A stretch of DNA of 64,000 bases from an uncultured virus (IMG/VR IMGVR_UViG_3300028422_001054) (lineage: Duplodnaviria; Heunggongvirae; Uroviricota; Caudoviricetes), in the IMG/VR virus record IMGVR_UViG_3300028422_001054. One strand, 5' to 3'. The notes beneath the pieces were generated by a model that did not search any database, was not told where the DNA came from, and worked only from the letters and a program-made list of their open reading frames with translations. Of the stretch, positions 19,833 through 34,828 are shown piece after piece. The position numbers and the translations under genes are program-made. Position 1 is the first letter of the stretch, and every line of letters begins with the position of its first letter.

Positions 19833-19912
19833 TTAAAAACTTTTAAAAAGTTTTAAAAAATGTTGGCAACTACTAAAAATGTTGTTAATATTAAAGAGTA
19901 GAGGAGTTAACG

Positions 19913-20104
19913 ATGGACGTGTTAGCAAAAGATGTTTGTTTTATAGAAAATGGGTTTGGCGATGGTATGCTCTATAATAAAGATGGATCTGCATGTTGGC
20001 AACTGCCGGCGTGTATAAAAAAAGAGGATATCATTCAAGGTTTCCCTCACTACATCATTAAGAGAGAAGCCTTGGACAAAAACGAGATTAGAAAATGGTT
20101 CTAA
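19913..20104 (+). CDS. hypothetical protein
   Basis: GAGGAG RBS; first gene of the + strand cluster. Confidence 0.65.
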   Translation: MDVLAKDVCFIENGFGDGMLYNKDGSACWQLPACIKKEDIIQGFPHYIIKREALDKNEIRKWF

Positions 20105-20125
20105 TCTAGAAAAAAGGAGAATAAT

Positions 20126-20311
20126 ATGAAAGACATTAAAATTGAAGAAGTTACAGAATTTGATAGTTATTTGTCAAGCTCCGCAAGTTTTGAAATGAAT
20201 TTGCTTTTAGCAAATTCATCTTTTTTAAAAGGCGTTAAAAGTCATGAAGCAGAGAAACTAAATGTTTCTCTTATCGACCTACATTTCGGGCGTGACGTCC
20301 GGAATGCATAA
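20126..20311 (+). CDS. hypothetical protein
   Basis: AAGGAG RBS. Confidence 0.6.
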   Translation: MKDIKIEEVTEFDSYLSSSASFEMNLLLANSSFLKGVKSHEAEKLNVSLIDLHFGRDVRNA

Positions 20312-20318
20312 AAACTTT

Positions 20319-20359
20319 TTATCAAGTATATTGACACAAATTAATATACTCGATAATAT
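20319..20359 (+). promoter_or_regulatory. palindromic sigma70 promoter, family B, copy 1
   Basis: TTGACA-17 nt-TAATAT within TTATCAAGTATATT/AATATACTCGATAA. Confidence 0.8.
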
Positions 20360-20364
20360 ATACA

Positions 20365-20408
20365 AGCTTGCAATGGTTTTTATAGTAGTTCGAATCTACT
20401 AGCAAGCT
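20365..20408 (+). ncRNA. tRNA-minihelix-like element, copy 1
   Basis: AGCTTGC/GCAAGCT stem enclosing TAGTAG-TTCGAAT-CTACTA. Confidence 0.65.
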
Positions 20409-20435
20409 ATAAATAAAAATTTTAAGGAGAATAAG

Positions 20436-20927
20436 ATGGAATTTACTTTAGAAGAAATCAATGAAATTATGGATAGAAATAATGGGGATCTAATCCTCAA
20501 GGATACACTTATCAAAACATTACCAGAAGGGTTAAAGGTTCAAGGAAACTTGGATCTGACAGATACCGACATTCAAGAGTTACCAAACGGGTTAATAGTT
20601 GGAAAAAACTTAAACTTGTACTTTACAAAGGTAACGTCGTTACCTGAAAATTTAAAAGTTGGTGGATGGGTAGAGCTACAAGGGACTAAGATAGAGACGT
20701 TACCAAAAGGTTTAGAAGTAGGCTTATCCCTAGATGCAAGCTATACACCAATGACAACACTACCAAGAGATTTAAAAATTGGTGGTTACCTTAGTCTGAG
20801 AGGGACTAAGGTAATAACATTACCAAAAGGGTTAACCGTAGGAACCGTTTTAGATATAACGAATACAAAAGTTAAGTCTTTACCTAAAGACTTAAAAGTA
20901 GGAGGTAAAATCTACAGCGATCTATAA
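20436..20927 (+). CDS. leucine-rich repeat protein (20-aa repeat, 6 full units, no C-terminal domain)
   Basis: LPxGLxVGGxLxLxxTxI repeats. Confidence 0.9.
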   Translation: MEFTLEEINEIMDRNNGDLILKDTLIKTLPEGLKVQGNLDLTDTDIQELPNGLIVGKNLNLYFTKVTSLPENLKVGGWVELQGTKIETLPKGLEVGLSLDASYTPMTTLPRDLKIGGYLSLRGTKVITLPKGLTVGTVLDITNTKVKSLPKDLKVGGKIYSDL

Positions 20928-20937
20928 GATTAATACA

Positions 20938-20982
20938 AGCTTGTAATGGTTTTATATAGTGGTTCAATTCCACTAGCAAGCT
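20938..20982 (+). ncRNA. tRNA-minihelix-like element, copy 2
   Basis: AGCTTGT/GCAAGCT stem enclosing TAGTGG-TTCAATT-CCACTA (compensatory pair). Confidence 0.65.
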
Positions 20983-21007
20983 ATAAACCAAAATTTAGGA
21001 GTTTAAT

Positions 21008-21550
21008 ATGGAATTCGAATTTGTAATGGGATCTACAATCCATAATACAATTATTATTGCAGAAATAAATATCAGAAATCATTTTTCAATATCTTTTAAT
21101 GAGGTTCTTCCGTTTGAAATGACAGAAGAAAGAGATCTAGAACAAAAAGAAAGCTTTCTTGAAAATTTTGAAGAAGAAGAAAGACAAGAAATAGAGGAAC
21201 AGATCTATTATCTTGGTTATGAAGGATATTTTGATATATCTTTATATTCAAATAATTTTAATTTTCCAGAACTGGAAAATGATATCTATTTTGAATCTAT
21301 AGGGTGTGGTCAGGGGGATCATAGAAAAGATCTTATATACTCTATTAACTCTATTGATAAAAATACAGATACAAAAGATATCAATACAAAGATCTTTGAC
21401 CTCTGGGATAGATTACATTTAAAGGAAATGGAGAGTTTATCAGAATCTGATAAACAAGAAATTAATAACTTAATTGAAAAAATCAAAACGTTTGATCTAG
21501 ATGATCAAATGGAAATATTAGCAAGAAAATTGCTAATAGAGGATAAATAA
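21008..21550 (+). CDS. acidic hypothetical protein
   Basis: AGGAG RBS; GCGQ and WDRLHL motifs. Confidence 0.75.
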   Translation: MEFEFVMGSTIHNTIIIAEINIRNHFSISFNEVLPFEMTEERDLEQKESFLENFEEEERQEIEEQIYYLGYEGYFDISLYSNNFNFPELENDIYFESIGCGQGDHRKDLIYSINSIDKNTDTKDINTKIFDLWDRLHLKEMESLSESDKQEINNLIEKIKTFDLDDQMEILARKLLIEDK

Positions 21551-21551
21551 C

Positions 21552-22130
21552 ATGAAACCATATGATAGTATAAAAACGATGTATAAGTCAAAAAGTCTTA
21601 TACATCGTAAAAAAGTTTGTTTAAACAATGATGTTGTTATTGTAACAACAGACGAGCAAGCTAATAAGTTAAGTCCATTGACTTTATATTCTTGGATAGG
21701 ACGCCTAAACGTTAATCTAAGAATGTACAATAGCAGTAGTCAATTCGGTGATATGGTTTTTTCAAACAAAGAAGACGCTGTTATTGAAAAAATCAGAGAA
21801 TTGAAGTTTATACAAAAAAATGTTAATGACTGTATTAATGACTTAAAAGAAGAAATTTCTACTATACGACGTATTAGATCTATAGCTAAAAAGCTATATA
21901 CTTTCTCTATGGAAAATTCATATTTAAGCAAACGAGATCTAGATCTTATTATATCTAGATATGAATTAAACTTAACCTTAAATGAGTTTAAAAACTTAAG
22001 CTTAATTATGGGAATTCAATTTAAGAGTAATAATCTTGTTTCTATATGGTTAGGAAAAAAATCAAAACTTAAGATTGAAACAATTATTAAAATAATAGAA
22101 AAATTGAGATATCAAATAAAAATAAATTAA
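21552..22130 (+). CDS. basic hypothetical protein
   Basis: 192-aa ORF, GAGG RBS. Confidence 0.7.
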   Translation: MKPYDSIKTMYKSKSLIHRKKVCLNNDVVIVTTDEQANKLSPLTLYSWIGRLNVNLRMYNSSSQFGDMVFSNKEDAVIEKIRELKFIQKNVNDCINDLKEEISTIRRIRSIAKKLYTFSMENSYLSKRDLDLIISRYELNLTLNEFKNLSLIMGIQFKSNNLVSIWLGKKSKLKIETIIKIIEKLRYQIKIN

Positions 22131-22137
22131 ATTATCT

Positions 22138-22178
22138 TTATCAAGTATATTGACAAAAATTAATATACTTGATAATAT
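22138..22178 (+). promoter_or_regulatory. palindromic sigma70 promoter, family B, copy 2
   Basis: perfect 14-bp arms TTATCAAGTATATT/AATATACTTGATAA; TTGACA-17-TAATAT. Confidence 0.85.
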
Positions 22179-22209
22179 GTAGAAAGATAAAAACTTGAGG
22201 AGTTTGAAG

Positions 22210-22896
22210 ATGAATAATTTTGACATGAACAGTAAAGGAATAAATATCATAGCTAATATTTTTTATGATGAATGTCTTTCGCAAGACAACTTTGACCGAA
22301 ATTGTAAACTTATAGATAAAAACAAAGATTTTTTTATATACACTGATTATGGTAACTTAAGCAGTGATTTCTATATATCTTTGAAAGAAGAGTCCAGAAC
22401 AGATCTCGAAGATGTTATAGAACAAGAACAAATTTATTGCGGATGCTCTATAGATGAGCTTGATATTCAAGAGCTTCAAGCTCTTATAGAAAATGAGTTA
22501 TCATATATAGATTTATTTTTTATCTGTAAAAAATATCATCTTGAGATTGAACAAAATTATGAGTTATTAACGATTCGAGGATTCTCTCAAGGTGACATCT
22601 TAAAAATATTTGTAAATATTGAAGAGTTTGAAAAGGTGACAGGAGCTGTTTTTAACGATATCAAAGAATCTTTAAAAGAAGATTTAATTAATTATTGTTA
22701 TAAAACACCATTAACTGCACGAATAACAATAAACGACCAAGAGATCTATTTGGACGGAATTGACGGCAATTATATTTATTATGATGCAGATACTAAAAAA
22801 CAAATTATAGAAATTTGTTTAAAAAGTGTATCAGATATTGATCAAGATCTTTTAAAAGAAGAACTTGAGGAATTATTACCAGAAGAAATAAATTAA
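22210..22896 (+). CDS. acidic hypothetical protein (RGFSQGD motif)
   Basis: GAGGAG RBS before ATG at 22210. Confidence 0.75.
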   Translation: MNNFDMNSKGINIIANIFYDECLSQDNFDRNCKLIDKNKDFFIYTDYGNLSSDFYISLKEESRTDLEDVIEQEQIYCGCSIDELDIQELQALIENELSYIDLFFICKKYHLEIEQNYELLTIRGFSQGDILKIFVNIEEFEKVTGAVFNDIKESLKEDLINYCYKTPLTARITINDQEIYLDGIDGNYIYYDADTKKQIIEICLKSVSDIDQDLLKEELEELLPEEIN

Positions 22897-22903
22897 ACTA
22901 ATT

Positions 22904-22944
22904 TTATCAAGTATATTGACAAAAATTAATATACTTGATAATAT
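22904..22944 (+). promoter_or_regulatory. palindromic sigma70 promoter, family B, copy 3
   Basis: identical to copy 2, with near-identical leader and RBS. Confidence 0.85.
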
Positions 22945-22975
22945 TTAGAAAGATAAAAACTTGAGGAGTTTAAAA

Positions 22976-23272
22976 ATGATAAAAATGATAGTCCAAGACA
23001 CGTATACAAAGAGAGATATAAACGGAAACGTTTATCACGCAATTACAATTATCAACCTTGAAAATAGAGAATCCTTTACTACTAGTTCTCCCAACTTAAG
23101 TAATGTTACCAGTATTTTGCAGAAAGCTGGTTTCGATTATAGTCAGATTTACACAATTGAAACTTGTACAGGATCGGCAAGGCATAGCTCTTTACCAAAA
23201 AGTATATACCTTGATCCTTGCAGGTATACGGAAGAATGGAAAAAACAATTAATAGGAATTAATTGTTTATAG
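22976..23272 (+). CDS. hypothetical protein
   Basis: GAGGAG RBS before ATG at 22976; DINGNVYH motif. Confidence 0.7.
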   Translation: MIKMIVQDTYTKRDINGNVYHAITIINLENRESFTTSSPNLSNVTSILQKAGFDYSQIYTIETCTGSARHSSLPKSIYLDPCRYTEEWKKQLIGINCL

Positions 23273-23337
23273 GATGTTAAGAGGTATTCATAAACCTCTT
23301 AATATTTAAAATTAAGATGACGACAAAAGAGGATAAT

Positions 23338-24177
23338 ATGGAATATACTTTAGAAGAACTGAATAAAATGATGGATGGAAACTATGGAAACTTAGATTTA
23401 AACTTCAATGATACTAAAGAAATATCATTACCGATATCGTTACCTAAAGGGTTAACTGCTCGAGGATGGTTAGATTTAGCTCATACGGAAATTGAATCAT
23501 TACCTGAAGGGTTAACGGTTAGGGGTACCTTATATTTAAGATATACCCCAATTATAGAATTACCAGAAGGGTTAACTGTAGGAAGAACCTTAGATTTAGA
23601 AGGTACTCCAATTAAATCTTTACCAAAAGGGTTAACCGTAGGAGGAGACTTAAATTTAAAATATACTAAAATTAAATCACTACCAAGAGATTTAAAAGTT
23701 GGTGGAAAAATCTACAGTGATTTACCTAAAAATGAACTAAATTACACAAAACTTCAACAAGGTGAGTATGTTGAAAATTCATACCTATATGCCGATGAAA
23801 TATTCACTCTTGTTAAATCTAAAAAGTCTTTTGATAAATACACATATTTTATTGGAGAGTTTAAAGGTCAAAACGTACTTTATGATGGTACTTATTACGC
23901 ACATTGTGAAAACATCAAGAAAGGACTTAGGGATCTTAACTTCAAACATTCTCAAGATAGAAGAATTGAACAATACAAAAATTTAAAATTAACAAGTAAT
24001 CTATCTTTTGATGAATCAAAAACGATGTACAGAATTTTAACTGGAGCATGTAGGCAAGGTACTGAAAGTTTCATTAGTAACTTAAAAACAATAAAAGATC
24101 AGTATACAATACAGGAATTAATAGATCTAACTGTTAATCAATATGGGCATGAAGTTTTTAAGAAGTTTTTTAAATAA
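23338..24177 (+). CDS. leucine-rich repeat protein (4 full units) with conserved C-terminal domain
   Basis: 20-aa LRRs plus YYAHC and YRILTGACRQGT domain; GAGGA RBS before 23338. Confidence 0.9.
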   Translation: MEYTLEELNKMMDGNYGNLDLNFNDTKEISLPISLPKGLTARGWLDLAHTEIESLPEGLTVRGTLYLRYTPIIELPEGLTVGRTLDLEGTPIKSLPKGLTVGGDLNLKYTKIKSLPRDLKVGGKIYSDLPKNELNYTKLQQGEYVENSYLYADEIFTLVKSKKSFDKYTYFIGEFKGQNVLYDGTYYAHCENIKKGLRDLNFKHSQDRRIEQYKNLKLTSNLSFDESKTMYRILTGACRQGTESFISNLKTIKDQYTIQELIDLTVNQYGHEVFKKFFK

Positions 24178-24191
24178 AAAGTTGTACTTTT

Positions 24192-24232
24192 CACTTGTTT
24201 ATGTTGACTAAAATATAAATAAGTGATAAGAT
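24192..24232 (+). promoter_or_regulatory. palindromic sigma70 promoter, family A, copy 1
   Basis: TTGACT-17-TAAGAT with TG extension; arms CACTTGTTTAT/ATAAATAAGTG. Confidence 0.8.
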
Positions 24233-24239
24233 TATTATA

Positions 24240-24284
24240 AGCTTATAATGGTTTTATATAGTAGTTCGATGCTACTAACAAGGT
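24240..24284 (+). ncRNA. tRNA-minihelix-like element, copy 3 (degenerate outer stem)
   Basis: TAGTAG-TTCGATG-CTACTA hairpin and AATGGTTTTATA linker kept; outer stem has two mismatches. Confidence 0.5.
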
Positions 24285-24296
24285 AAGGAGATTTTT

Positions 24297-24617
24297 ATGA
24301 TTATGGCATTTAAAAGATATCTAGAAATAAATGATTTTACGCTTATAGATTGTATTGCTTTAGAAAATAGCACCTATCAAATTTCTTATTATGATAATAA
24401 GAGCAAGGCAATAAAAACAAAACTTGTACCAAAATATAAAAAGTCTTATACGCTAAGATATGTTAATAGAAATGAAGTTTTTTATGTAGATTTTAGTCCT
24501 ATGACTTCAAAGGAAGCTAAAATTATTAAAAATAATTCTCTGTTTTATCCTAACCGAACAATAGATATTGTTCCATATGGTTTTTATCTTGAGTGGAAAA
24601 ATGGGCAATTGCTATAA
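24297..24617 (+). CDS. hypothetical protein
   Basis: AAGGAG RBS. Confidence 0.7.
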   Translation: MIMAFKRYLEINDFTLIDCIALENSTYQISYYDNKSKAIKTKLVPKYKKSYTLRYVNRNEVFYVDFSPMTSKEAKIIKNNSLFYPNRTIDIVPYGFYLEWKNGQLL

Positions 24618-24631
24618 AATAGCATATAACA

Positions 24632-24676
24632 AGCTTGTAATGGTTTTATATAGTAGTTCGATTCTACTAGCAAGCT
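24632..24676 (+). ncRNA. tRNA-minihelix-like element, copy 4
   Basis: AGCTTGT/GCAAGCT stem enclosing TAGTAG-TTCGATT-CTACTA. Confidence 0.65.
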
Positions 24677-24701
24677 ATAAATCAAAATAGAGGAGTTAAA
24701 T

Positions 24702-24932
24702 ATGTTTACAAAAAGAAATAGAATTTCCAGTATCGAGAAAAAGTTAAATATCCGAACGGAATTAAAACTTAAAGATTATAGTGATAGTTTAAATTCTACT
24801 TTTAAAGTATTTAGACTAATCGATGAGTATCCTACAAATACGACAGGAATCTATAAATCAACTGGTCAGAAATATGAATATGATGGTATTTTTACTAAGC
24901 AACAATTGATTGACGAATGCAACAAACTATAA
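24702..24932 (+). CDS. hypothetical protein
   Basis: GAGGAG RBS. Confidence 0.7.
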   Translation: MFTKRNRISSIEKKLNIRTELKLKDYSDSLNSTFKVFRLIDEYPTNTTGIYKSTGQKYEYDGIFTKQQLIDECNKL

Positions 24933-24957
24933 ATCAGATTTTTAGGAGTGATGAAAA

Positions 24958-25383
24958 ATGGATTATGAAACTTTAATAAATAACAAGATCGAACAGCATA
25001 AAAAATTAAAACAAGAAAAAAAGGATAAAAGGACTTCTCAAGAAATAAGACTTGAGGAAGTAGCTAATCAAATTGAAAAGTTTTATGAAGCTATAGACAA
25101 AAGTAACTTAAGATTTAACAAAAATAACTCTATAGAGAGTGTAACCTTTAAACAGCTATTTCATAAAAACAATATGCTACTCCGTAGATCTACAGGTACC
25201 GAAATTAAGTTTAAAACACCTATTTTAAGATACGAACATCTTACACTAATGTTAAATAGCAATCTAGACTTGATATTTGTATTAAGTTCTATGTATGCTT
25301 CGAGTACACCAAATAAAATATTTAGAAATATTGACGATTTAATTGGTTTTATGACTACTAAAATTATTGATATGAGCATATAG
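24958..25383 (+). CDS. hypothetical protein
   Basis: AGGAG RBS; 141 aa. Confidence 0.7.
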   Translation: MDYETLINNKIEQHKKLKQEKKDKRTSQEIRLEEVANQIEKFYEAIDKSNLRFNKNNSIESVTFKQLFHKNNMLLRRSTGTEIKFKTPILRYEHLTLMLNSNLDLIFVLSSMYASSTPNKIFRNIDDLIGFMTTKIIDMSI

Positions 25384-25398
25384 AAAAAGGAGTTTAAG

Positions 25399-25692
25399 AT
25401 GAATATAGAACTAATTGTAAATAATGAACCATGTTGGTTACATGATGTAAGATTTAATGCAGAAGCGTTAAATGATTATTTAACATATGATGGTGATAAT
25501 TACCATATATCAGAAACTGATTTTAATTGGTGGTCGGAATATAACAATAAATATAATAATGCCGATGATAAATTAAAAGAGCTGTTTGAGAAAAATGAAG
25601 AGTTAAAAGAGGAATTCTTCCATTTTATCATAGAGAAAGATTTTAATGATTACCCTGAGCAAATTCTTTATTTTATAGAGTTGAATAAATAA
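25399..25692 (+). CDS. acidic hypothetical protein
   Basis: AAGGAG RBS. Confidence 0.7.
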   Translation: MNIELIVNNEPCWLHDVRFNAEALNDYLTYDGDNYHISETDFNWWSEYNNKYNNADDKLKELFEKNEELKEEFFHFIIEKDFNDYPEQILYFIELNK

Positions 25693-25718
25693 GGTTTTTA
25701 GTTAAAATGTGTACTTTT

Positions 25719-25759
25719 CACTTATTTATGTTGACTAAAATATAAATAATTGGTAAGAT
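25719..25759 (+). promoter_or_regulatory. palindromic sigma70 promoter, family A, copy 2
   Basis: TTGACT-17-TAAGAT; CACTTATTTAT/ATAAATAATTG. Confidence 0.8.
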
Positions 25760-25789
25760 TATTACAAGATAAAGACAAGAGAGGATGTT

Positions 25790-26551
25790 ATGGAATATAC
25801 TTTAGAAGAACTAAATAAAATGATGGAAGAGAATGATGGAAACTTAAGTTTATATAATACTCCGATTAAATCATTACCAGAAGGGTTAAAGGTTGGAGGT
25901 TGGTTAGATTTAAGAAATACCCCAATTAAATCGTTACCAGAAGGATTAACAGTTGGAGGATATTTAGATTTAGAAAATACTGAAATTGAATCTTTACCAG
26001 AAGGATTAACCGTTGGAGGATATTTAGCTTTAAGGTATGCTCCAATTACAACGCTACCAGAAGATTTAAAAGTTGGAGGTACCATATTTAGGGATTTACC
26101 TGAAAATGAACTCAATTATACAAAACTTAAACAAGGTGATTATGTTAAAGATGAATATCTATATGCCGATGAAATCTTAACTCACATTAAAGCTAAAAAA
26201 TCTTTTGATAAGTACACATATTTTATTGGTAAATTTAAAGATAAAAACGTACTTTATGATGGAACTTATTATGCTCACTGTAAAAACATCAAACAAGGAA
26301 TTAAGGATCTTAGCTTCAAACATGCTAAAGATAGAAGAATTGAACAATACAGAAATCTCAAGCTAACAAGTATTCTATCTTTTGAAGAATCAAAAACAAT
26401 GTATCGAGTTTTAACTGGAGCATGTAGGCAAGGAACTGAAAGCTTTATTAGTAACTTAAAAACAATAAAAGATCAGTATACAGTACAGGAATTACTAGAT
26501 CTAACTGTTAATCAATATGGGCATGAAACTTTTAAGAAGTTTTTTAGTTAA
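25790..26551 (+). CDS. leucine-rich repeat protein (3 full units) with conserved C-terminal domain
   Basis: close paralog of 23338 and 31137. Confidence 0.9.
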   Translation: MEYTLEELNKMMEENDGNLSLYNTPIKSLPEGLKVGGWLDLRNTPIKSLPEGLTVGGYLDLENTEIESLPEGLTVGGYLALRYAPITTLPEDLKVGGTIFRDLPENELNYTKLKQGDYVKDEYLYADEILTHIKAKKSFDKYTYFIGKFKDKNVLYDGTYYAHCKNIKQGIKDLSFKHAKDRRIEQYRNLKLTSILSFEESKTMYRVLTGACRQGTESFISNLKTIKDQYTVQELLDLTVNQYGHETFKKFFS

Positions 26552-26565
26552 AAAGTTGTACTTTT

Positions 26566-26606
26566 CACGTATCTATGTTGACTAAAATATAGATACGTGA
26601 TAATAT
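26566..26606 (+). promoter_or_regulatory. palindromic sigma70 promoter, family A, copy 3
   Basis: TTGACT-17-TAATAT; arms CACGTATCTAT/ATAGATACGTG. Confidence 0.85.
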
Positions 26607-26636
26607 TATTACAAGATAAAGAAAAGAGAGGATAAT

Positions 26637-27251
26637 ATGGAATATACTTTAGATGTGTTGAATAAAATGATGGAAGAGAATGATGGAGACTTAGATTTAA
26701 AACATACTGGGATTGAATCGTTACCAGAAGGGTTAACAGTTGGAGGATATTTAGATTTAAGCTATACTTCAATTACATCATTACCTAATGGGTTAACTGT
26801 TGGAGGATGGTTAGATTTAAGAAATACTCAAATTACAACACTACCAGAAGGGTTAACGGTTGGAGGTAGCGTATATTTAAGATATACTCAAATTACATCG
26901 TTACCTAAAGGATTAACGGTTGGAGGAACCTTAGATTTAGAAGGTACTACAATTACATCGTTACCAAAAGGATTAACCGTTGAAGGAAGCTTATATTTAG
27001 ACTATTCTCGAATAACTTCATTACCAGAAGGGTTAACTGTTGGAGGTTGGTTAGATTTAAGTTATGCTCCAATTGAATCGTTACCAGAAGGGTTAACTGT
27101 TGGAGAAATCTTATATTTAGAAGGTACTAAAATAACATCGTTACCACAAGATTTAAAAGTTGGTGATAAAATCTACGGAGATTTACCAAAGAAGGAACTA
27201 CACTGCACAAAACTCCAACAGGACGATTATATTGCATTTGAATACCTATAA
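26637..27251 (+). CDS. leucine-rich repeat protein (7 full units), C-terminal domain lost
   Basis: 20-aa LRRs; early TAA followed by a remnant of the paralog 3' end. Confidence 0.85.
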   Translation: MEYTLDVLNKMMEENDGDLDLKHTGIESLPEGLTVGGYLDLSYTSITSLPNGLTVGGWLDLRNTQITTLPEGLTVGGSVYLRYTQITSLPKGLTVGGTLDLEGTTITSLPKGLTVEGSLYLDYSRITSLPEGLTVGGWLDLSYAPIESLPEGLTVGEILYLEGTKITSLPQDLKVGDKIYGDLPKKELHCTKLQQDDYIAFEYL

Positions 27252-27312
27252 GCGGAAGGAATCTTAGCTCCTGTTAAATCTAAGAAGTTTTTTAGTTAAA
27301 ATGTGTACTTTT

Positions 27313-27353
27313 CACTTATTTATGTTGACTAAAATATAAATAAGTGATAAGAT
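27313..27353 (+). promoter_or_regulatory. palindromic sigma70 promoter, family A, copy 4
   Basis: TTGACT-17-TAAGAT; perfect arms CACTTATTTAT/ATAAATAAGTG. Confidence 0.85.
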
Positions 27354-27383
27354 TATTACAAGATAAAGAAAAGAGAGGATAAT

Positions 27384-27701
27384 ATGAAAAGTTTTAGAGA
27401 AATGAGTCCTAAGGAATGGAGTGAAGCAGTAGAGAAACTAGCTAGTGATTTATCAAATACAGACTTAAATGTATTCCGAGAAAGTACATTGAGAAGAATG
27501 TATGCTGATATGTATGGTGTAGATGATGATATAGAAAGAGCTTATTCCATAGAGGATATAAAGAACTGTTTATATGACGAGGATATTACTGATGAACAAG
27601 CTGATAAAATATCCATCTGGCTAGAGACTAAAGGAGATAGTACTCTTACATTTTGGGAGAATATAACGAATGCTTATGATACATTAAAGGAGGAGTTCTA
27701 A
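27384..27701 (+). CDS. acidic hypothetical protein
   Basis: same leader and RBS as the LRR genes. Confidence 0.75.
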   Translation: MKSFREMSPKEWSEAVEKLASDLSNTDLNVFRESTLRRMYADMYGVDDDIERAYSIEDIKNCLYDEDITDEQADKISIWLETKGDSTLTFWENITNAYDTLKEEF

Positions 27702-28258: not shown

Positions 28259-28259
28259 A

Positions 28260-28643
28260 ATGAGACATAGCATAAAAAATGAAATCGTGGCTGGTTTTAA
28301 AACAGCTTTATTATGGATACACCAAGAAGATTTTGAAGATATCGATACTTTTTCAGATTCTGCTGAATTGTTTATTGATAACTTAGTAAAGGATTTTATC
28401 AAAGAGACTAATCTCTTTGACCTAATGGGAGCTTTTACACCTTTAAACGATGAATACTCTATAGGGGAACTTATAGGACATGATTTGTTTTTATCGGTGG
28501 GAGGATTTGGAGCTGGTTTCTTGAGTAAACCTAATATCTATAATGGTTTCGAAAATAATCTTGATAACTTTGTAGAAAAAAAGGTTACATGGATAAACGA
28601 TATTTTCATAAATGATGAAAGTCATGTTATAGAGATAGAGTAA
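28260..28643 (+). CDS. hypothetical phage protein (GHDLFL...GxGxGF motif)
   Basis: GAGGAG RBS before ATG at 28260. Confidence 0.75.
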   Translation: MRHSIKNEIVAGFKTALLWIHQEDFEDIDTFSDSAELFIDNLVKDFIKETNLFDLMGAFTPLNDEYSIGELIGHDLFLSVGGFGAGFLSKPNIYNGFENNLDNFVEKKVTWINDIFINDESHVIEIE

Positions 28644-28730
28644 TAAATGTTGGTACTTTTTACTAGGGAAAAAGTAGTAGTTTTTAGATAAGAGTAGTAA
28701 ATATTACAGTTTTAAGAGAGGATAAAGAAG

Positions 28731-29357
28731 ATGTTTAAAGAAAATGATTTAGTAAAATCTAAAGTAAGTAGTGAAATCTATACAGTTCAAAAGGTTTCAG
28801 ATTATGTTGTACTAAGTAATGGTGGTAGATACTTAGAGGAAGAGCTTAGAGAAGCTACTAAAGAGGATCTATACCAAGAGTTGGAATCTAAAGTAAGAGT
28901 TTGGGTTAATAGAGAGTTTAACAGTATTCCTTTAAGATTAGTGGAAGCTCTGGTAGAAAATGAAGGACAGAATTTATCAGAGTTTATACATCCTTTAGAC
29001 TGTTTAGACATTAAAGAATCTATTGAAAATATATCTTCCCAGCTTGAGGATGATGATTTTTCAGAAGAGGATAGAGAGTATTTAGAAGAGGAGTTGCAAA
29101 CTCTTAATGAAAAGTTAGATAGCTTAAACGATGACAATTATCCTTTACATGGTACATTGTTTGAGTTGAACTCTACAGATGAAGATATTATAGAAGCAGC
29201 TAAGAAAATAGGACTAGGAGTTATATCTGGGAATGATTACTTTAACTCTATGTTATTTATGACAGAAACTGGAAGCAACTTCTATAGAAAGTTTTGGATA
29301 CCTTTATTCTTGGAGCTATATCCTGATACTAGGTATGATGGTATAGAGATAGGTTAA
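28731..29357 (+). CDS. acidic hypothetical phage protein (C-terminal FY...WIPL motif)
   Basis: GAGG RBS; 208 aa. Confidence 0.75.
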   Translation: MFKENDLVKSKVSSEIYTVQKVSDYVVLSNGGRYLEEELREATKEDLYQELESKVRVWVNREFNSIPLRLVEALVENEGQNLSEFIHPLDCLDIKESIENISSQLEDDDFSEEDREYLEEELQTLNEKLDSLNDDNYPLHGTLFELNSTDEDIIEAAKKIGLGVISGNDYFNSMLFMTETGSNFYRKFWIPLFLELYPDTRYDGIEIG

Positions 29358-29431
29358 AGAGAGTGTTATTATATCCTTCTACCGTTGGTGGAAGGTAGTA
29401 TTACTAATATGAGTTATGGAGATAAATAGAT

Positions 29432-29650
29432 ATGGAAAATATACTAATTAAAGATGTGGTATTACTGAATACTGTAATAGATTTTACAATGGCATTAAAC
29501 AATGTATCTGTAAAGGATTTAAAAGATATGGAGCTATCTAAGGCTGTTGATTATGTTATAGGGTTAATTCCTGAAACTAAGAAAGATGAAATGGATATTG
29601 ATAATTTGCATGAAGTAGTTGAATACTGCTTGATAAACAAATTAAGCTAA
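29432..29650 (+). CDS. hypothetical protein
   Basis: GGAG RBS. Confidence 0.65.
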   Translation: MENILIKDVVLLNTVIDFTMALNNVSVKDLKDMELSKAVDYVIGLIPETKKDEMDIDNLHEVVEYCLINKLS

Positions 29651-29906
29651 TAGAATTATGGTTAAAGTAGGCTTTAATGTTTATTTTAACCAATCAAAAC
29701 TTTTCCTAGAGCGTAGACTGTACTTTTTACCTCTAGGAGTTGACTAAAAATCATTTTACTGTTTATTTTATAATTTATTTAATTGGTAAATTTCACCAAT
29801 TGACTGGCGAGATTTACCAATCGAAAAAATTAAATAAAAATCATAGCTTTTTGATTGACACAACAGTATATGTATGTTAATATTATTACATAAAGGAGAT
29901 AATCAG

Positions 29907-30383
29907 ATGGATTTAAGAGCAATAGATACTTTAGTACTACCAATGACAGATAAGAGATATTTAGTATGTTCTTTTGATGGTAATGAGTTATCATCTCTAA
30001 AGGATATATGTGATATGGAGACTAATACCTTGGATAAGGCTTTAAAACTTTGTGGAATATTATCTGAGAAGTATGAGGTATGTTTTGTATATGATATATT
30101 ACATGGAAGGGTATCGTATACAGGAGTGACAACACCTTCTGGATGTTTTGTTAAGAAGATACAGTATGATTTGATAGAGTCTTATTTTAGAAATATTTAT
30201 CATATAGAGGATCTTTATAGAGTAGGTTTTATAGGAGCTAAGGATATGCTTATAGATACTTTTCCTAAAGATACTTTATTTACGATGGTACCAGGTTTAA
30301 GTGTTGTTGTAGCGTATACTAGAGAGTTTAATGTAATATATGATAAGTTTGTTACTACTTATCAAGTAATAGGGACTATTTAA
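29907..30383 (+). CDS. hypothetical protein
   Basis: AAGGAG RBS before ATG at 29907; TTGACA-17-TAATAT upstream. Confidence 0.7.
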   Translation: MDLRAIDTLVLPMTDKRYLVCSFDGNELSSLKDICDMETNTLDKALKLCGILSEKYEVCFVYDILHGRVSYTGVTTPSGCFVKKIQYDLIESYFRNIYHIEDLYRVGFIGAKDMLIDTFPKDTLFTMVPGLSVVVAYTREFNVIYDKFVTTYQVIGTI

Positions 30384-30418
30384 AGTCTTTGCTTTATGCT
30401 ATGGTGGAGGTAAATACT

Positions 30419-30658
30419 ATGCTAACAGGATATAGAAGATTTAAAACGATTGTTGATTTACTTAAGAGACAATCGGAGGCTTATACTAAGATTCATAGTG
30501 TGAATGCTTGGGTATATGATTATGGAACTTCTGAAGAGATTAAAGAGCATAATAAAGTAATTAGAGAAGGCTCTGAGGAATTAAGAGTTGTTGAGGAAGA
30601 ACTTAAAGCTTTAGATGTTACCTTTGAAGAAGTAACACATGCTTATAGATGTTACTAG
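30419..30658 (+). CDS. hypothetical coiled-coil protein
   Basis: GGAGG RBS before ATG at 30419. Confidence 0.65.
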   Translation: MLTGYRRFKTIVDLLKRQSEAYTKIHSVNAWVYDYGTSEEIKEHNKVIREGSEELRVVEEELKALDVTFEEVTHAYRCY

Positions 30659-30759
30659 TCTAACTTTAAGATGTGTATTAGTGGTTTTAAAGTATTTAAT
30701 GCTTTAGAGTTTAATAAGAGTATATCTAAGTATACTACATTATATAGAGGAGTTGTTAT

Positions 30760-31002
30760 ATGAAGAAAATAACACAATTAGCAAATAATCAATTAACTTA
30801 TACAGATGGAGATAAAAGAGTATTTCAAAGCTATAATACTATTATTGCAGTAATTGAGAATGGTAAAACATTCTTAGACGAAACCTCGTGAAATTATTCA
30901 AAGACTACAGCCAAGTGGAGAAATATCTTTTTAAATATGACTACTGAGGAGACAAAGAAAGCTATCAAAGAAGGTGATACCACTCTTAAGGATCTTAATT
31001 AG
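30760..31002 (+). pseudogene. small phage protein (FQSY..IIA / YSxTTxKW pattern) with in-frame TGA
   Basis: GAGGAG RBS; TGA at 30889 interrupts an 80-codon frame (probably TGG to TGA). Confidence 0.7.
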
Positions 31003-31061
31003 CTAATGCAGAAATCAACCTACGATTACTTTTTAAGAAGTTTTTAATTAAAAAGTCGTAA

Positions 31062-31106
31062 TTATCACTTATTTATGTTGACTAAAGCATAAATAAGAGA
31101 TAATAT
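31062..31106 (+). promoter_or_regulatory. palindromic sigma70 promoter, family A, copy 5
   Basis: TTATCACTTATTTATG-TTGACTAAAG-CATAAATAAGAGATAA; TAATAT -10. Confidence 0.85.
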
Positions 31107-31136
31107 TATTACAAGATAAAGAAAAGAGAGGATACT

Positions 31137-32858
31137 ATGGAATATACTTTAGAAGAATTAAATAGAATGATGAAAGATAATGATGGAAACTTAGATTTAA
31201 GACATACTAAAATTACATCACTGCCTAAAGGATTAACAGTTGGAGGTAACTTATATTTAAGAAATACTCAAATTACCTCGTTACCAGGAGATTTAATTGT
31301 TGGAGGAGACTTAGATTTAAGTTATACTCCAATCACATCGTTACCAGGAGATTTAATTGTTGGAGGAGACTTAGATTTAAGTTATACTCCAATCACATCG
31401 TTACCAGACGATTTAATTGTTGGAGGAGACTTAGATTTAAGTTATACTCCAATCACATCGTTACCAGACGATTTAATTGTTGGAGGTAGCTTATATTTAA
31501 GCAATACTCAAATTAAATTATTACCAAAAGGATTGAAGGTTGGAGGTGGGGTAGATTTAAGATATGCTCCGATTAAATCATTACCAGAAGACTTATCTGT
31601 TGGAAGTAGCTTAGATTTAAGTCGTACTCAAATTAAATCATTACCAGAAGGGTTAAAGGTTGGAGGTTGGTTAGATTTAAGATATGCTCCAATTAAATCG
31701 TTACCAGAAGAGTTAATGGTGAAAGGTAGTTTATATTTAGAAAATACTCAAGTTACCTCGTTACCAGAAGGGTTCATGGTTAGAGGTAGCTTATATTTAA
31801 GTCATACTCAAATCACATCGTTACCAAAAGGGTTAACGGTTGGAGGAGACATAGATTTAAGATATGCTCCAATTACATCGTTACCAGAAGGGTTAACCGT
31901 TGGTGGTAATTTAGACTTAGAAGGTACTAAAATTACCTCGTTACCAGAAGGGTTAACTGTTGGAGGTTGGCTAGATTTAAGTCATACTCAAATCACATCG
32001 TTACCAAAAGGGTTAACGGTTGGAGGAGACATAGATTTAAGCGTTACTCCGATTACAACACTACCAGAAAGGTTAACGGTTGGAAGAAATCTAGATTTTA
32101 GATATACTAAAATTACCTCGTTACCAGAAGGGTTAACTGTTGGAGGTTGGCTAGATTTAAGAAATACTCAAATTACATCATTGCCTAAAAGGTTAACTGT
32201 TGGAGGATATTTAGATTTAAGTTCTACTCAAATTACATCGTTACCTGAAGGATTAACCGTTGGAGGTAACTTATATTTAGAAGGTACTAAAATCACATCG
32301 TTACCGAAAGGGTTAACGGTTGGAGGATATTTAGCTTTAAGTAATACTCCAATTAAATCGTTATCAATAGATTTAAAAGTTGGAGGTACCATATTTAGCG
32401 ATTTACCTAAAAATAAAGTCAAATATACAAAACTTCAACAAGGTGACTATAGTGAAGCTGACTATCTGTATGCAGATGGAATCTTAACTCATATTAAAGC
32501 TAAAAAATATTTTGATAAATATACATATTTTATTGGAGAATTTAAAGATAAAAATGTACTTTATGATGGAACTTATTATGTTCACTGTAAAAACATTAAG
32601 CAAGGAATTGAGGATCTTAACTTCAAACATGCTAAAGATAGAGGGTCTGATCACTACAAAAATCTAAAATTATCCAGTATTCTATCTTTTGAAGAATCTA
32701 AAACGATGTACAGGATTTTAACCGGTGCGTGTAGACAAGGTACTGAAAGTTTTATTGAAAATTTGAAAATAATAAAAGAACAGTATACCATCCAAGAATT
32801 AATAGATCTAACTGTTAATCAATACGGTTATGAAACTTTTAAGAAGTTTTTTAGTTAA
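31137..32858 (+). CDS. leucine-rich repeat protein (19 full units) with conserved C-terminal domain
   Basis: 60-bp periodic DNA repeat; YRILTGACRQGT domain. Confidence 0.92.
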   Translation: MEYTLEELNRMMKDNDGNLDLRHTKITSLPKGLTVGGNLYLRNTQITSLPGDLIVGGDLDLSYTPITSLPGDLIVGGDLDLSYTPITSLPDDLIVGGDLDLSYTPITSLPDDLIVGGSLYLSNTQIKLLPKGLKVGGGVDLRYAPIKSLPEDLSVGSSLDLSRTQIKSLPEGLKVGGWLDLRYAPIKSLPEELMVKGSLYLENTQVTSLPEGFMVRGSLYLSHTQITSLPKGLTVGGDIDLRYAPITSLPEGLTVGGNLDLEGTKITSLPEGLTVGGWLDLSHTQITSLPKGLTVGGDIDLSVTPITTLPERLTVGRNLDFRYTKITSLPEGLTVGGWLDLRNTQITSLPKRLTVGGYLDLSSTQITSLPEGLTVGGNLYLEGTKITSLPKGLTVGGYLALSNTPIKSLSIDLKVGGTIFSDLPKNKVKYTKLQQGDYSEADYLYADGILTHIKAKKYFDKYTYFIGEFKDKNVLYDGTYYVHCKNIKQGIEDLNFKHAKDRGSDHYKNLKLSSILSFEESKTMYRILTGACRQGTESFIENLKIIKEQYTIQELIDLTVNQYGYETFKKFFS

Positions 32859-32893
32859 CCCTAGGAAGTTATATGCAATAAAGAGGAGAAAAC

Positions 32894-33196
32894 ATGAAAA
32901 TATGTACACTGTGCGAGTATGAAATAGAGGAATCATCTGATAGCTGCCTAAAGAAAGGTAAATGTCCGGTGTGTGGATCTGAGGAACTTGTAGGTACAGA
33001 AGATTTATTCGATGTTAATAAAGGAATAAACTTTATCTGTTCAAAAGCAAGTAATAAAGATGATAGATTGCAGCTTATTAAAACTTTACTTAAAGGACTT
33101 TCTATCACTAAGAAAACGGAGATAGTTCAAGGAAATTGCTTTGAAGGGTTCACATCAATGTATGATAAACATATTATTTTAAAGGAATTTTGTTGA
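32894..33196 (+). CDS. zinc-ribbon protein
   Basis: CTLC and CPVCGS; GAGGAG RBS. Confidence 0.7.
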   Translation: MKICTLCEYEIEESSDSCLKKGKCPVCGSEELVGTEDLFDVNKGINFICSKASNKDDRLQLIKTLLKGLSITKKTEIVQGNCFEGFTSMYDKHIILKEFC

Positions 33197-33242
33197 CACT
33201 AATACCTATTAATGGTAATATTTAATAGTTGAAGGAGAAAAT

Positions 33243-33929
33243 ATGGAAAAATTTTTAAACAAACATAATGTTGATGCAGATGTAGATTGTATAGCTGAAG
33301 GAGTTTACTCTGTTAGAGTAAATAATAAAGACCTGGACCTAGTAGATGTAGAAAATTGTTTGCGAGAGCAACCCGATAAAGTTTACTTAGACTATTCATT
33401 GCTTGCAAAACAAGAGATTCAAAAAACTTATGCAAGAATAATTGAAAGAGTTCAAGATGTTGAGATAGGTAAAACTTTAGAGGTTGAAAAGTTCAGTATC
33501 TTTAAAAAAGATGATAATCTTTTTGAAATTAAAACTAAGAATATTAAAACCCCAAGACTGTCATCTATAAATAACTTACCTTATGCACTTCACGAGCTTC
33601 ATTTACAGGCTTTGAGAGATAAAATAGTTCTTTTCCCTGGAACCGAGGGAAATGATGTAGATAGAACAGCATTCGCTTTTAGCGAAGTATATGCTAATCT
33701 GAAAAAACTTGTAAGACATCATCTTAGAATAGGAACCAGCAATGCTGAGTATGACTTACTCTCTGATCTATTGTATGTTGCTACAGGTTATGAAGAAGAG
33801 GATGAAGCTCTAATGTTATTTAATCTATATTTGGACAGAATACTAAATGAAGCGGATGAGCTAATGTCACCTGTTTTGAAAACTGTTTTAGTAAAGTTTA
33901 TTAATAAAATATTTAGGAGTGCTGAATGA
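33243..33929 (+). CDS. hypothetical protein
   Basis: TTGACA-17-TAATAT promoter and AAGGAG RBS. Confidence 0.75.
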   Translation: MEKFLNKHNVDADVDCIAEGVYSVRVNNKDLDLVDVENCLREQPDKVYLDYSLLAKQEIQKTYARIIERVQDVEIGKTLEVEKFSIFKKDDNLFEIKTKNIKTPRLSSINNLPYALHELHLQALRDKIVLFPGTEGNDVDRTAFAFSEVYANLKKLVRHHLRIGTSNAEYDLLSDLLYVATGYEEEDEALMLFNLYLDRILNEADELMSPVLKTVLVKFINKIFRSAE

Positions 33930-34294
33930 AAGTATATATTAACGAATATGGTCTAAGTTATTTACCTCTACATAGAGTATATGATGCTAAAGCTAAAAGA
34001 CTTGTTCATGTAGATGAAAATCTTATAGATGATTTAATAAGTAGGTACGATATTCCAGCAAAAAAGAGATTTGGATTGTACCAGTTATCTAAACAAGATT
34101 TTAATATTTGGGGTGCATTTTTTAATGGACTTCAACAGGTAGAGCTTATCAAAGCTGCCTTAGTATATCTTACAAAAGATGAAGAGGAAATTTTTAACGA
34201 AGCGTTTGACTGGGTAGATACTTTGGAAATACCTATGAGATGTTTAGAAAGATTGGAACAAATAAGAGGAGAAAGAAATGGAAAAATTAACTGA
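33926..34294 (+). CDS. hypothetical protein
   Basis: ATGA overlap; AGGAG RBS. Confidence 0.7.
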   Translation: MKVYINEYGLSYLPLHRVYDAKAKRLVHVDENLIDDLISRYDIPAKKRFGLYQLSKQDFNIWGAFFNGLQQVELIKAALVYLTKDEEEIFNEAFDWVDTLEIPMRCLERLEQIRGERNGKIN

Positions 34295-34805
34295 AATAGA
34301 AAAAGTAAAGGATTTAGTATATCAAGGAAAATCTCAAAAAGAAATTGCTGAGATTTTAGGTAAAAGTCAAGTATTTATTGGAACATGTATATCAAGACTT
34401 AGAAAGTCTAAAAACTTTAATATACATTTTGCTCATGGCAGACATGTAAATAAAGGAAGACTAGAACTTGTAAGATTTTTTCACAAGTTTAATATGCTTC
34501 ATGGATTTTTTCCTAAACAAGCTTGGGTGGCAAAACTTTGGGGAGTAAGTAGACAGGCTATTAACCAAGCGAACCCGAACAAAGGGGAGGAAATAGGAAA
34601 GTTTGTTAGACTATCTGGGCCAGTATATATCTCAGACAGTTTTAATAAGTTTATACAAGATTACGCTGAGCTTTTTGGTTTTTCATGGGCAGAAGCTCTT
34701 AAAAGTTTTACACACAATGTAGATTTCTCAAAAATAAACTTTGAAGATTTAAAAAATTCTATGATTGAAAAAACTGAAAACGAGCTTGATCAAGATTTAA
34801 AATAA
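34278..34805 (+). CDS. helix-turn-helix DNA-binding protein
   Basis: GKSQKEIAEILGKSQ and QAWVAKLWGVSRQAI HTH-like motifs. Confidence 0.7.
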   Translation: MEKLTEIEKVKDLVYQGKSQKEIAEILGKSQVFIGTCISRLRKSKNFNIHFAHGRHVNKGRLELVRFFHKFNMLHGFFPKQAWVAKLWGVSRQAINQANPNKGEEIGKFVRLSGPVYISDSFNKFIQDYAELFGFSWAEALKSFTHNVDFSKINFEDLKNSMIEKTENELDQDLK

Positions 34806-34827: not shown

Positions 34828-34828
34828 T

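Follow-up and report, generated by a model that had tools for sequence, protein, structure and literature searches.

The question raised by positions 19,913–34,805 of IMG/VR record IMGVR_UViG_3300028422_001054, a 64,000-nucleotide stretch of DNA from an uncultured virus of the Caudoviricetes (the whole of which is called the window here), is why some 15 kb of same-strand genes should be preceded again and again by the same few regulatory parts. An initial annotation had described eight palindromic promoters in two families, four tRNA-like elements and five paralogous genes for leucine-rich repeat (LRR) proteins, and had viewed the whole as an accordion-like array of host-takeover or anti-defence genes that exchanges cassettes by recombination between its repeats. 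The inventory presented below supports the notion of a few repeated regulatory parts that occur in different combinations. We read the stretch between 19.9 and 34.8 kb as a variable early-gene region, transcribed by the host RNA polymerase, in which portable promoter/stem-loop cassettes and minihelix leaders double as homology patches, and we give this reading as a whole a probability of about 0.6.

Promoters fused to stem-loops

A palindromic promoter was defined as a TTGAC-plus-(−10)-like site flanked by a palindrome with at least 10 matching pairs. By this definition 8 of the 27 such promoter-like sites in the window are palindromic, all of them on the + strand between 20.3 and 31.1 kb, as compared to 2 of 299 in a control set of 153 unrelated phage and prophage loci (1.13 Mb). 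These numbers bear out the eight palindromic promoters of the initial annotation, as well as their division into two families. Family B consists of three cassettes with the −35 at 20331 (B1, 20319–20359), 22150 (B2, 22138–22178) and 22916 (B3, 22900–22945). The five cassettes of family A have it at 24204 (A1, 24191–24232), 25731 (A2, 25693–25759), 26578 (A3, 26565–26606), 27325 (A4, 27312–27353) and 31078 (A5, 31012–31106), the intervals of A2 and A5 including a relic of an LRR gene that is described further below. The top promoters of the region in a sigma-70-type scan were the first seven of these together with 29855 and 33193, and 31078 was added by a separate TTGAC scan; ten sites agree with the consensus at 9 or more of 12 positions, all of them on the + strand between 20.3 and 33.2 kb. 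Each of the eight cassettes agrees with the consensus at 9–10 of 12 positions and has a 17-nt spacer (TTGACa/t, 17 nt, TAAtAT). The TG of an extended −10 is found in six of the seven cassettes among the matches listed by the sigma-70-type scan and is missing at 20331. We infer that the region is transcribed early because its promoters are of the host-type consensus, because they are absent from the structural genes on the opposite strand and because the phage has a sigma factor gene of its own at 38775–39425.

Folding produced the same geometry in both families, with AT-rich hairpin arms of 15–16 bp and a loop of 6–10 nt. The first two bases of the −35 are in the stem and the remainder is in the loop at the hairpin tip, while the 3′ arm extends to about −12, taking in the TG of the extended −10. 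The RNA folds of the eight cassettes have energies between −11.1 and −20.3 kcal/mol (B1, −11.8; B2, −17.5; B3, −17.7; A1, −18.3; A2, −11.1; A3, −20.3; A4, −18.3; A5, −17.3), as compared to −4.9 and −5.6 kcal/mol for two non-palindromic promoters. All eight hairpins start 4–60 nt past the stop codon of the upstream gene and are followed by a short leader, a Shine-Dalgarno (SD) sequence and an ATG. B1 and A1 are located directly before minihelices 1 and 3, respectively; B2 and B3 precede the open reading frames (ORFs) 22210–22896 and 22976–23272, A4 precedes the non-LRR ORF 27384–27701, and A2 and A5 stand behind non-LRR ORFs, the latter frame-shifted. Given this layout, the earlier 'palindromic promoter' is more aptly seen as a promoter to which a terminator-like stem-loop is fused. 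If such a hairpin has to stop right ahead of a U/A-rich tract, and if this tract doubles as the −10 and start of the promoter that follows, the −35, 17 bp upstream, must fall at its tip. Two unrelated arm sequences would then share one geometry because a single requirement is placed on the end of the hairpin.

The base pairing of the arms is well preserved. In family A, 96.7% of 90 cells are paired across the five copies, against 33–56% for slid partners, and in 3 of the 18 pairs, two of A3 and one of A5, both partners are altered, a result reached by only 5 of 500 shuffles. The G of the −35 is part of a G-U pair in seven of the eight cassettes (all three of family B, as read from the aligned sequences, and four of five in family A, the fifth having G-C), and several non-Watson-Crick pairs of the stems are G-U on the + strand. 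The arm sequences occur only as pairs in the cassettes; two or three other matches with one mismatch correspond to the level expected by chance (1.7–1.9).

The arms could instead be operators, where a dimeric protein of the phage or the host bound to both sides of the −35 shuts the early promoters off or on, with the two families responding to two regulators or at two times. With the −35 between them and the −10 at their end, the arms are ideally placed for blocking RNA polymerase, two distinct arm sequences share one geometry, and the ORF that closes the region (34278–34805) has a weak helix-turn-helix signal (Pfam E ~0.003, below the cut-off). However, three stem pairs changed on both arms with the pairing kept are unexpected for a fixed half-site, the G-U pairs are found on the + strand only, and isolated half-sites are not above chance elsewhere. 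Furthermore, the elements known as PeSLs, which have the same layout, act as terminator and promoter with no dedicated repressor in the account given in PMC2839356. Taken together, operators are unlikely, and a promoter/stem-loop cassette is the preferred description of these sites. A cruciform-extrusion or single-strand promoter was dropped as well, the −35 being in the loop and not in the stem and nothing being in its favour. CRP-like sites upstream of family A were not retained since the motif differs among the copies. Integrons are same-strand arrays with an integrase and attC sites, in which the cassettes have no promoters; attC-like sites were rejected here since no integrase was found among the 66 ORFs scanned and each hairpin contains a promoter.

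tRNA-like minihelix leaders

The second repeated part is a tRNA-like minihelix. A covariance model derived from the four copies noticed in the initial annotation gives them 72–81 bits and the next match in the window 14 bits, which sets them clearly apart. Minihelix 1 (20363–20410, + strand; 75.7 bits, −13.6 kcal/mol, z −3.2) follows B1, with the base of its stem 5–7 nt from the −10. Minihelix 2 (20936–20984, + strand; 79.6 bits) is intercistronic, 8 nt past the stop codon of LRR1, and has a compensatory G-C pair in its T-stem. Minihelix 3 (24238–24286, + strand; 72 bits, z −0.96) follows A1; its T-arm is intact, five of seven acceptor pairs are left and the spacer to the SD is deleted. Minihelix 4 (24630–24678, + strand; 81.3 bits) is again intercistronic, 12 nt past the stop codon of ORF 24297–24617. 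In three of the four copies a 7-bp stem is stacked on a 6-bp stem with a 7-nt loop, at an ensemble frequency of 72–77%, and a one-sided linker of 11–12 nt takes the place of the D and anticodon arms in an element of about 49 nt. All four copies have a TTCRANN loop with a G-C closing pair. Loop differences among them are confined to position 57, which is G or A, and to positions 59 and 60, all of them variable in tRNAs, and one T-stem pair is changed from A-T to G-C on both sides. One copy matches GGTTCRANYCC, the motif used for finding plant t-elements (PMC1920247).

The position of the minihelices is as regular as their structure. Copies 1 and 3 begin 5–9 nt past the −10 of a family B and a family A promoter, respectively, and the transcripts should therefore start 0–2 nt before the base of the stem. 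Copies 2 and 4 are placed after the first gene of the same two operons. The minihelix, an A-rich spacer and the SD were kept as one unit in three of the four copies. By analogy with known substrates of the tRNA-processing enzymes, the minihelix most likely marks sites of cleavage by RNase P or RNase Z and a 5′ end that is protected.

Conventional searches did not recognize these elements. ARAGORN found no tRNA gene in the 64 kb, and Rfam gave nothing at gathering thresholds, no match at the four minihelix sites and no tRNA-model match between 19600 and 25000 even at E ≤10, the rows returned being at chance level. Scans of IMG/VR with exact patterns, one of which would have missed most of the copies in the window, yielded no match; a scan of the JGI metagenomes with an exact pattern yielded none either, the window's own contig included. 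Comparison to the phage records by blastn produced four short chance matches only, and the covariance model had no match in the 80 IMG/VR loci with LRR-family genes. In a full-text literature search, judged on titles and the openings of abstracts, no paper emerged that describes early phage mRNAs headed by a repeated leader of tRNA-like shape. Of the parts of the array, this leader is the one least charted so far.

The minihelices could also be neutral debris of a single tRNA gene that decayed by losing its D and anticodon arms and was then duplicated together with the leaders, with no function as RNA. This possibility is about as unlikely as that of operators. The same internal 'deletion' is seen in all four copies, which are 94% alike, and a single origin suffices for this; their covariation is not significant, and one copy already lacks two of the seven acceptor pairs. 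On the other hand, the differences among copies avoid the invariant positions of the T-loop and one change in the T-stem is compensated. The base of the stem coincides with two predicted transcript starts, and minihelix, spacer and SD were kept as a unit in three of the four copies. A processing signal at the 5′ end remains our preferred interpretation. The use of the minihelix as attP or as a tRNA 3′-end integration site was considered and dropped: both acceptor strands are present, and there are four copies, all in leaders. An Rfam model of a CRISPR repeat weakly matches 24787–24816, within ORF 24702–24932 (31 bits against a gathering threshold of 42, E 0.065, single copy), most likely by chance.

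Scars of rearrangement at the cassettes

The five LRR paralogs were all located, on the + strand and with a 60-nt repeat. LRR1 (20436–20927) is LRR-only and ends after its last repeat. LRR2 (23338–24177), LRR3 (25790–26551) and LRR5 (31137–32858, with 20 copies of the repeat) are full length, that is, they consist of an LRR region and a conserved C-terminal domain. LRR4 (26637–27251) has a premature stop at 27249–27251 and about 390 nt of its C-terminal domain deleted. The 3′ end of these genes carries an 11-mer, AAGAAGTTTTT, that is found five times on the + strand of the region and six times in the window, where 0.36 occurrences are expected. The observation that LRR 3′-end sequence stands upstream of most family A promoters proved correct: AAGAAGTTTTT is exact and close upstream of four of the five, and a degenerate copy is present at the fifth (25731). 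It was also right that the copy at 31035 lies behind a gene that is not an LRR gene.

Several of these junctions look like remnants of genes that are gone. LRR4 retains the last ~45 nt of the gene (27255–27299) ahead of A4 despite its loss of ~390 nt. Relics of the LRR 3′ end also stand ahead of A2 (25693), where the relic is degenerate, and of A5 (31012), where it comprises the last ~45 nt of the gene, and in both cases the upstream gene is non-LRR. The ancestral array would therefore have been of the form LRR–cassette–LRR, the bodies of the LRR genes having been replaced later. The cut end of LRR1 adjoins a fragment identical to the family A −10/start region at 15 of 16 bases (our own count), which is followed by minihelix 2. 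Variants are shared among the A cassettes as in a mosaic, by A2 and A4 upstream, by A3 and A5 at the −10 and by A3 and A4 in the leader, and B2 and B3 both contain the last codons of their upstream genes. A broken or chimeric family A cassette with a hairpin-forming insert of about 100 bp is found at 29719–29890 (+ strand), its left half at 29719–29750 and an inverted repeat with 39-nt arms at 29760–29843; the promoter that follows at 29855–29883 is non-palindromic and is succeeded by a start region resembling that of family A. On this evidence from the DNA, scars of REARRANGEMENT at the cassettes indicate that genes were lost, truncated or replaced there.

In both operons with minihelices the first gene is bracketed by two of them. 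This pattern would be expected if a circle carrying a gene and an element had recombined into a resident element. No recombinase is visible in the window, as had been stated before: none, and no integrase, was identified among the 66 of 94 predicted ORFs that were scanned against PHROGs. Its absence is no problem because the shuffling of PeSLs is attributed to recombination between repeats (PMC2839356), which we would read as ordinary homologous recombination.

Three more LRR paralogs are apparently located outside the window, on a contig of the same length. For two of them, the N-terminus as called is a translation across an LRR tail that directly abuts a leader, leaving no room for a promoter. 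The contigs of the two sequencing runs in which this DNA was found break at the promoter repeats. Five joints are listed, and in two of them, at approximately the depth of the phage, the LRR tail is joined straight to the leader and the promoter is skipped. These tail-to-leader joints were not counted as deletion variants since the LRR paralogs outside the window explain them equally well.

The stronger version of the idea, an active 'accordion' of host-takeover or anti-defence genes that is now expanding, contracting and swapping under selection by host defences, appears quite improbable, more so than operators or debris. Its attractions are the many paralogs (five in the region and apparently three outside the window), repeat numbers that range from 4 to about 22 LRRs, the truncated copies and relics, and the contig joints in which the promoter is skipped at about phage depth. 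Against it, the joints have the equally good explanation just given, none of the cargo has a known function, and the paralogs have diverged by 12–17% at the DNA level in the C-terminal domain (over the last 450 nt of the full-length genes), and are therefore not recent. The genomic accordions of poxviruses are recent, near-identical amplifications in which the copy number changes by recombination at repeats, and the LRR paralogs differ from them in this divergence. They are therefore an established gene family and their amplification is not recent. The earlier proposal stands in part. Past exchange of genes at the repeats is supported by the scars of loss, truncation and replacement, and recombination between promoter repeats, circular products included, agrees with the model developed for PeSLs (PMC2839356); the recent amplification implied by 'accordion-like' is not supported. 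A role in host takeover or anti-defence was not substantiated either: the 21 non-LRR ORFs have no family match above threshold and the C-terminal domain of the LRR proteins has no fold match, and the role is therefore a guess from position only. We continue with the reading in which the cassettes and minihelices of an early region serve as homology patches.

Proposed mechanism

In the RNA arriving from upstream, the cassette hairpin together with the U/A-rich −10/start region would attenuate or terminate transcription, or protect the 3′ end, and the same cassette DNA would then start a fresh transcript. Host RNase P, and possibly RNase Z, would cut at the minihelices. In primary transcripts the minihelix would form a base-paired 5′ end; in read-through transcripts and at the internal copies, RNase P would trim the RNA to the same 5′ end and separate the upstream first cistron. 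Such a base-paired 5′ end would protect the mRNA from 5′-end-dependent decay. Cassettes and minihelices would also be homology patches for the insertion, deletion and replacement of genes, the cargo being LRR proteins with an uncharacterised C-terminal domain and the 21 orphan ORFs. Hairpins consisting of acceptor stem, T-stem and T-loop are reported to be cut correctly by the RNA of RNase P (PMC11143913). A terminator located at a promoter fits this scheme because, according to PMC11347151, a bacterial RNA polymerase can stay on the DNA after termination at a hairpin and restart at the nearest promoter.

The closest precedent for the cassettes is that of the PeSLs of the T4-type phages phi1 and RB49, repeated elements that begin at the upstream stop codon and comprise a sigma-70 promoter, a stem-loop, an SD and an ATG (Arbiol et al. 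2010, PMC2839356). PeSLs are found at about 50 per genome, mostly upstream of orphan ORFs, and their terminator and promoter strength was demonstrated with reporters (PMC2839356). Recombination between them is described as explaining most gene differences between phi1 and RB49 and as yielding small circles (PMC2839356; Comeau et al. 2014, PMC4122927). In these accounts the PeSLs analysed are those of T4-type phages of Gram-negative hosts. The elements described here share with them the short repeated intergenic cassettes in a variable region rich in orphans, the extension from the upstream stop codon to SD and ATG, the strong sigma-70-type promoter, the stem-loop between or over the −35 and −10 boxes and the G-T pairs in the stems. 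They differ in that the stems are AT-rich and 15–16 bp long rather than poly-G/poly-C, in that the −35 is always at the hairpin tip, in that the eight cassettes form two tight sequence families as opposed to about 50 loose copies, and in that the family A repeat includes the 3′ end of an LRR gene. A tRNA-like leader is added here, and the word 'tRNA' is absent from PMC2839356. Finally, our cassettes are known from sequence alone, whereas PeSL function and circles come from T4-type phages. By this analogy, we regard the promoter cassettes as a PeSL variant in an unrelated phage.

For the leaders, the nearest relatives in behaviour may be the t-elements of plant mitochondria, where a 5′ cut by RNase P and a 3′ cut by RNase Z are reported to set mRNA ends (Forner et al. 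2007, PMC1920247). The minihelices have in common with t-elements and with the model substrates of RNase P a canonical T-arm, a tRNA-like piece adjoining mRNA ends and a minimal acceptor/T hairpin. Unlike t-elements, they belong to a bacterial virus and not to an organelle, they are a repeated portable leader fused to the SD at the start of transcripts, their D and anticodon arms are fully replaced by the 11–12-nt linker, and their cutting is predicted. As to the region as a whole, it recalls the host-takeover module of the Bacillus phage SPO1, which is described as a block of some 12 kb within the terminal redundancy, where several of the products have a shut-off role (PMC6873191). Both regions consist of early genes that are mostly small, are divided among several operons and for the most part have no known target. 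The promoters and ribosome sites of the SPO1 module are said to be typical of highly expressed genes (PMC6873191); palindromic promoters and tRNA-like leaders, which characterize the array described here, are not mentioned for SPO1 in the passages of PMC6873191 considered.

Several observations weigh against the reading that we favour. The tails past the cassette hairpins are poor U-tracts and only one of the eight, the 26578 copy (A3), passed a simple terminator scan; termination may therefore be weak or absent. The two-sided changes in the arms could have arisen by template switching in the palindrome, with no selection involved. The single compensatory pair of the minihelices is reached or exceeded in 135 of 500 shuffles, the four copies are recent (94% mean column identity), they have no CCA end, and the acceptor stem of the copy at 24238 is degenerate. 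Finally, the phage is not of the T4 type, and 'PeSL' can therefore only mean here an element that works like one, not one that shares its descent.

Least probable of the alternatives, and very unlikely, is that cuts on either side set the minihelix free as a small tRNA-like RNA with a task of its own, for instance to divert, as a decoy, those host enzymes or defence nucleases which read the acceptor end or the elbow of a tRNA. A complete acceptor/T-arm stack with no CCA may be a substrate of RNase Z, a GG of the linker might stand in for the D-loop contact, the gene for a phage RtcB RNA ligase lies 2 kb upstream, and plant t-elements are reported to be released and to gain non-encoded C/A additions (PMC1920247). 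In every copy, however, the minihelix belongs to a leader that continues into an SD, as would suit an element acting in cis, and it has no anticodon arm.

Within the reading of a variable early region, a more specific proposal can be made only tentatively, and we think it more likely wrong than right. The minihelix leader would be a mobile RNA-processing module, a phage counterpart of t-elements that recruits RNase P or RNase Z, gives all mRNAs headed by it one and the same protected 5′ end and is at the same time a landing pad for homologous recombination, of which the bracketing of the first gene in both operons would be the mark; together with the cassettes, it would constitute a two-layer 'plug-in' system for new early genes outside the T4-type phages.

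Cargo genes

The LRR proteins are made up of 20-residue (60-nt) repeats, from 4 to about 22 per protein. LRR4 and LRR5 are above the Pfam cut-offs (LRR_1/LRR_4/LRR_8), and an LRR protein was modelled by AlphaFold with a predicted local distance difference test (pLDDT) score of 89.6, its best structural matches being LRR domains. Among solved structures, the LRR part comes closest in sequence to the LRR protein of PDB entry 8z5u (E 6e-41), which we take from its title, unchecked, to be FlrP. A preprint (10.64898/2025.12.04.692373) presents FlrP as an LRR protein of the polar flagellar motor of Vibrio that is bound to the rod. The C-terminal domain, of about 150 residues and with invariant His and Cys residues, is present in three of the five proteins. 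Its model is of similar quality (pLDDT 89.4), and searches for its fold gave no known match (best Foldseek E 0.4; best VIA Z 4.2), nor was there a match in Pfam or to a PDB sequence. In a comparison with IpaH-type proteins, which combine LRRs with an NEL ligase, the LRR part alone matches, and no ligase is among the fold matches listed for the C-terminal domain.

The family is not confined to this phage. It has 891 relatives in the protein collection, mostly from phages and Clostridia genomes, 80 loci in IMG/VR, and 73 loci in species-representative genomes, mostly metagenome-assembled genomes of Clostridia. LRR genes with the C-terminal domain occur twice on one Ruminococcus contig, about 9 kb apart (L086 and L095), and the family was also seen outside Clostridia, in contigs labelled Helicobacter pylori (L092), Dysgonomonas and others. 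In 40 of the 80 IMG/VR contigs, as counted from the table, the LRR match begins within 60 nt of the contig end and is missing at least 38 N-terminal residues. Assemblies therefore often break in the LRR repeats, which hints at heterogeneity in repeat number or at hypervariability.

None of the 21 non-LRR ORFs had a family match above threshold in Pfam, PHROGs or NCBIfam, and a protein atlas search of the cargo returned unnamed viral clusters only. Two of the last ORFs, 33243–33929 and 34278–34805, have a sub-threshold similarity (E ~0.003–0.006) to sigma-70 region 4 or to sigma factors of the TcdR-BotR type, and the last ORFs of the array might code for regulators of middle genes. ORF 22210–22896 had no homolog except itself in the protein collection. 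A small ORF at 30760–31002 matches phrog_21575 (E 6.5e-6) and is interrupted by a stop at 30891, with an apparent continuation to 31002 in another frame; either a frameshift, a pseudogene or a sequencing error would account for it.

Other signals in and around the array

Additional promoter-like sites and hairpins complete the inventory. The first promoter-like site of the array (19863–19891, + strand; TTGGCA, 17 nt, TAATAT) is ahead of the first small ORFs and has a weak, imperfect palindrome of another geometry (−10.6 kcal/mol). A third type of hairpin, of higher G+C content, at 23274–23309 (+ strand), covers a weak promoter-like site whose −35 and −10 were assigned by eye (TTAAGA, 17 nt, TAATAT); it is followed by a U-rich tail and then by the family A-type leader of LRR2. 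The promoter scan also placed a non-palindromic consensus promoter at 33193–33221 (+ strand), within the 3′ end of ORF 32894–33196, that would drive the last three ORFs. The region ends at 34796–34833, where the fold scan detected a 16-bp AT-rich palindrome between the + strand array and genes on the − strand. This hairpin resembles those of the cassettes in being of the same size, long and AT-rich, and is likely a two-way terminator. A canonical-looking terminator (12-bp stem, 3-nt loop, T-run) at 20193–20230 lies inside the 61-codon ORF 20126–20311, and either this ORF is not real or the terminator is an attenuator behind the first gene.

Immediately upstream of the array is a 1.3-kb gene-free stretch in which five tandem copies of a 61-nt unit (82% matches; 19151–19477) are followed by terminator-like hairpins (19580–19627 and 19686–19727) and by an AT-rich palindrome with TACAAGC/GCTTGTA (19778–19814). 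This stretch could be an origin, a binding array or a feature of a genome end. Genes for a peptide deformylase, a radical-SAM protein and the RtcB RNA ligase are clustered at 14732–17895 (− strand), immediately upstream of the early region. On the other side, a chemoreceptor-like gene (35444–37189, − strand; MCPsignal domain, E 3e-24, and a weak Cache domain) adjoins that of thymidylate synthase. A link of this gene, and of the resemblance of the LRR proteins to a flagellar protein, to the motility of the host is only a thought.

The phage

At about 31% G+C, the window encodes tail sheath and capsid proteins and contains a weak match to a T4-like portal; its further products include thymidylate synthase, RtcB, peptide deformylase, a sigma factor and a chemoreceptor-like protein. 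From this set of structural and enzyme genes it follows that the window is part of a large myovirus, which is new and very divergent. Its proteins were placed on a 129,693-bp contig in the protein collection, and the DNA was found in two runs, both labelled hydrothermal vent metagenome; the two runs (X1 and X2) give identical figures and are possibly one data set and possibly the source of the window, and no RNA run was among those listed. By megablast the region had no match among 50,697 phage records, and among the same records the capsid protein had a single match, at 22% identity. One relative of the capsid protein, at 75% identity, was found in a collection of 5.8 billion proteins, where it is encoded on Logan contigs of at most 25 kb. 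Scans of IMG/VR with the single proteins LRR2, RtcB and the capsid protein found no relative of the phage, nor did an alignment of the capsid protein to the JGI metagenomes. A Gp23-type capsid protein was not found among the window proteins, and the Portal_T4 match was weak (21.5 bits against a cut-off of 22.9). Judging from the missing Gp23-type capsid, the portal score below the cut-off and a capsid protein only 22% identical to the nearest one, we consider that the phage is not of the T4 type.

Implications

A PeSL-like solution in an unrelated phage suggests that large lytic phages have a general, convergent 'test bed' of new early genes. With a large LRR family whose C-terminal domain is an orphan in fold, the array is also a good starting point for studying this family. 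If the host RNase P or RNase Z cuts the minihelix, the early mRNAs of this phage would be punctuated by tRNA-processing enzymes, like organelle mRNAs, and the minihelix itself would be a compact, portable part that defines a 5′ end.

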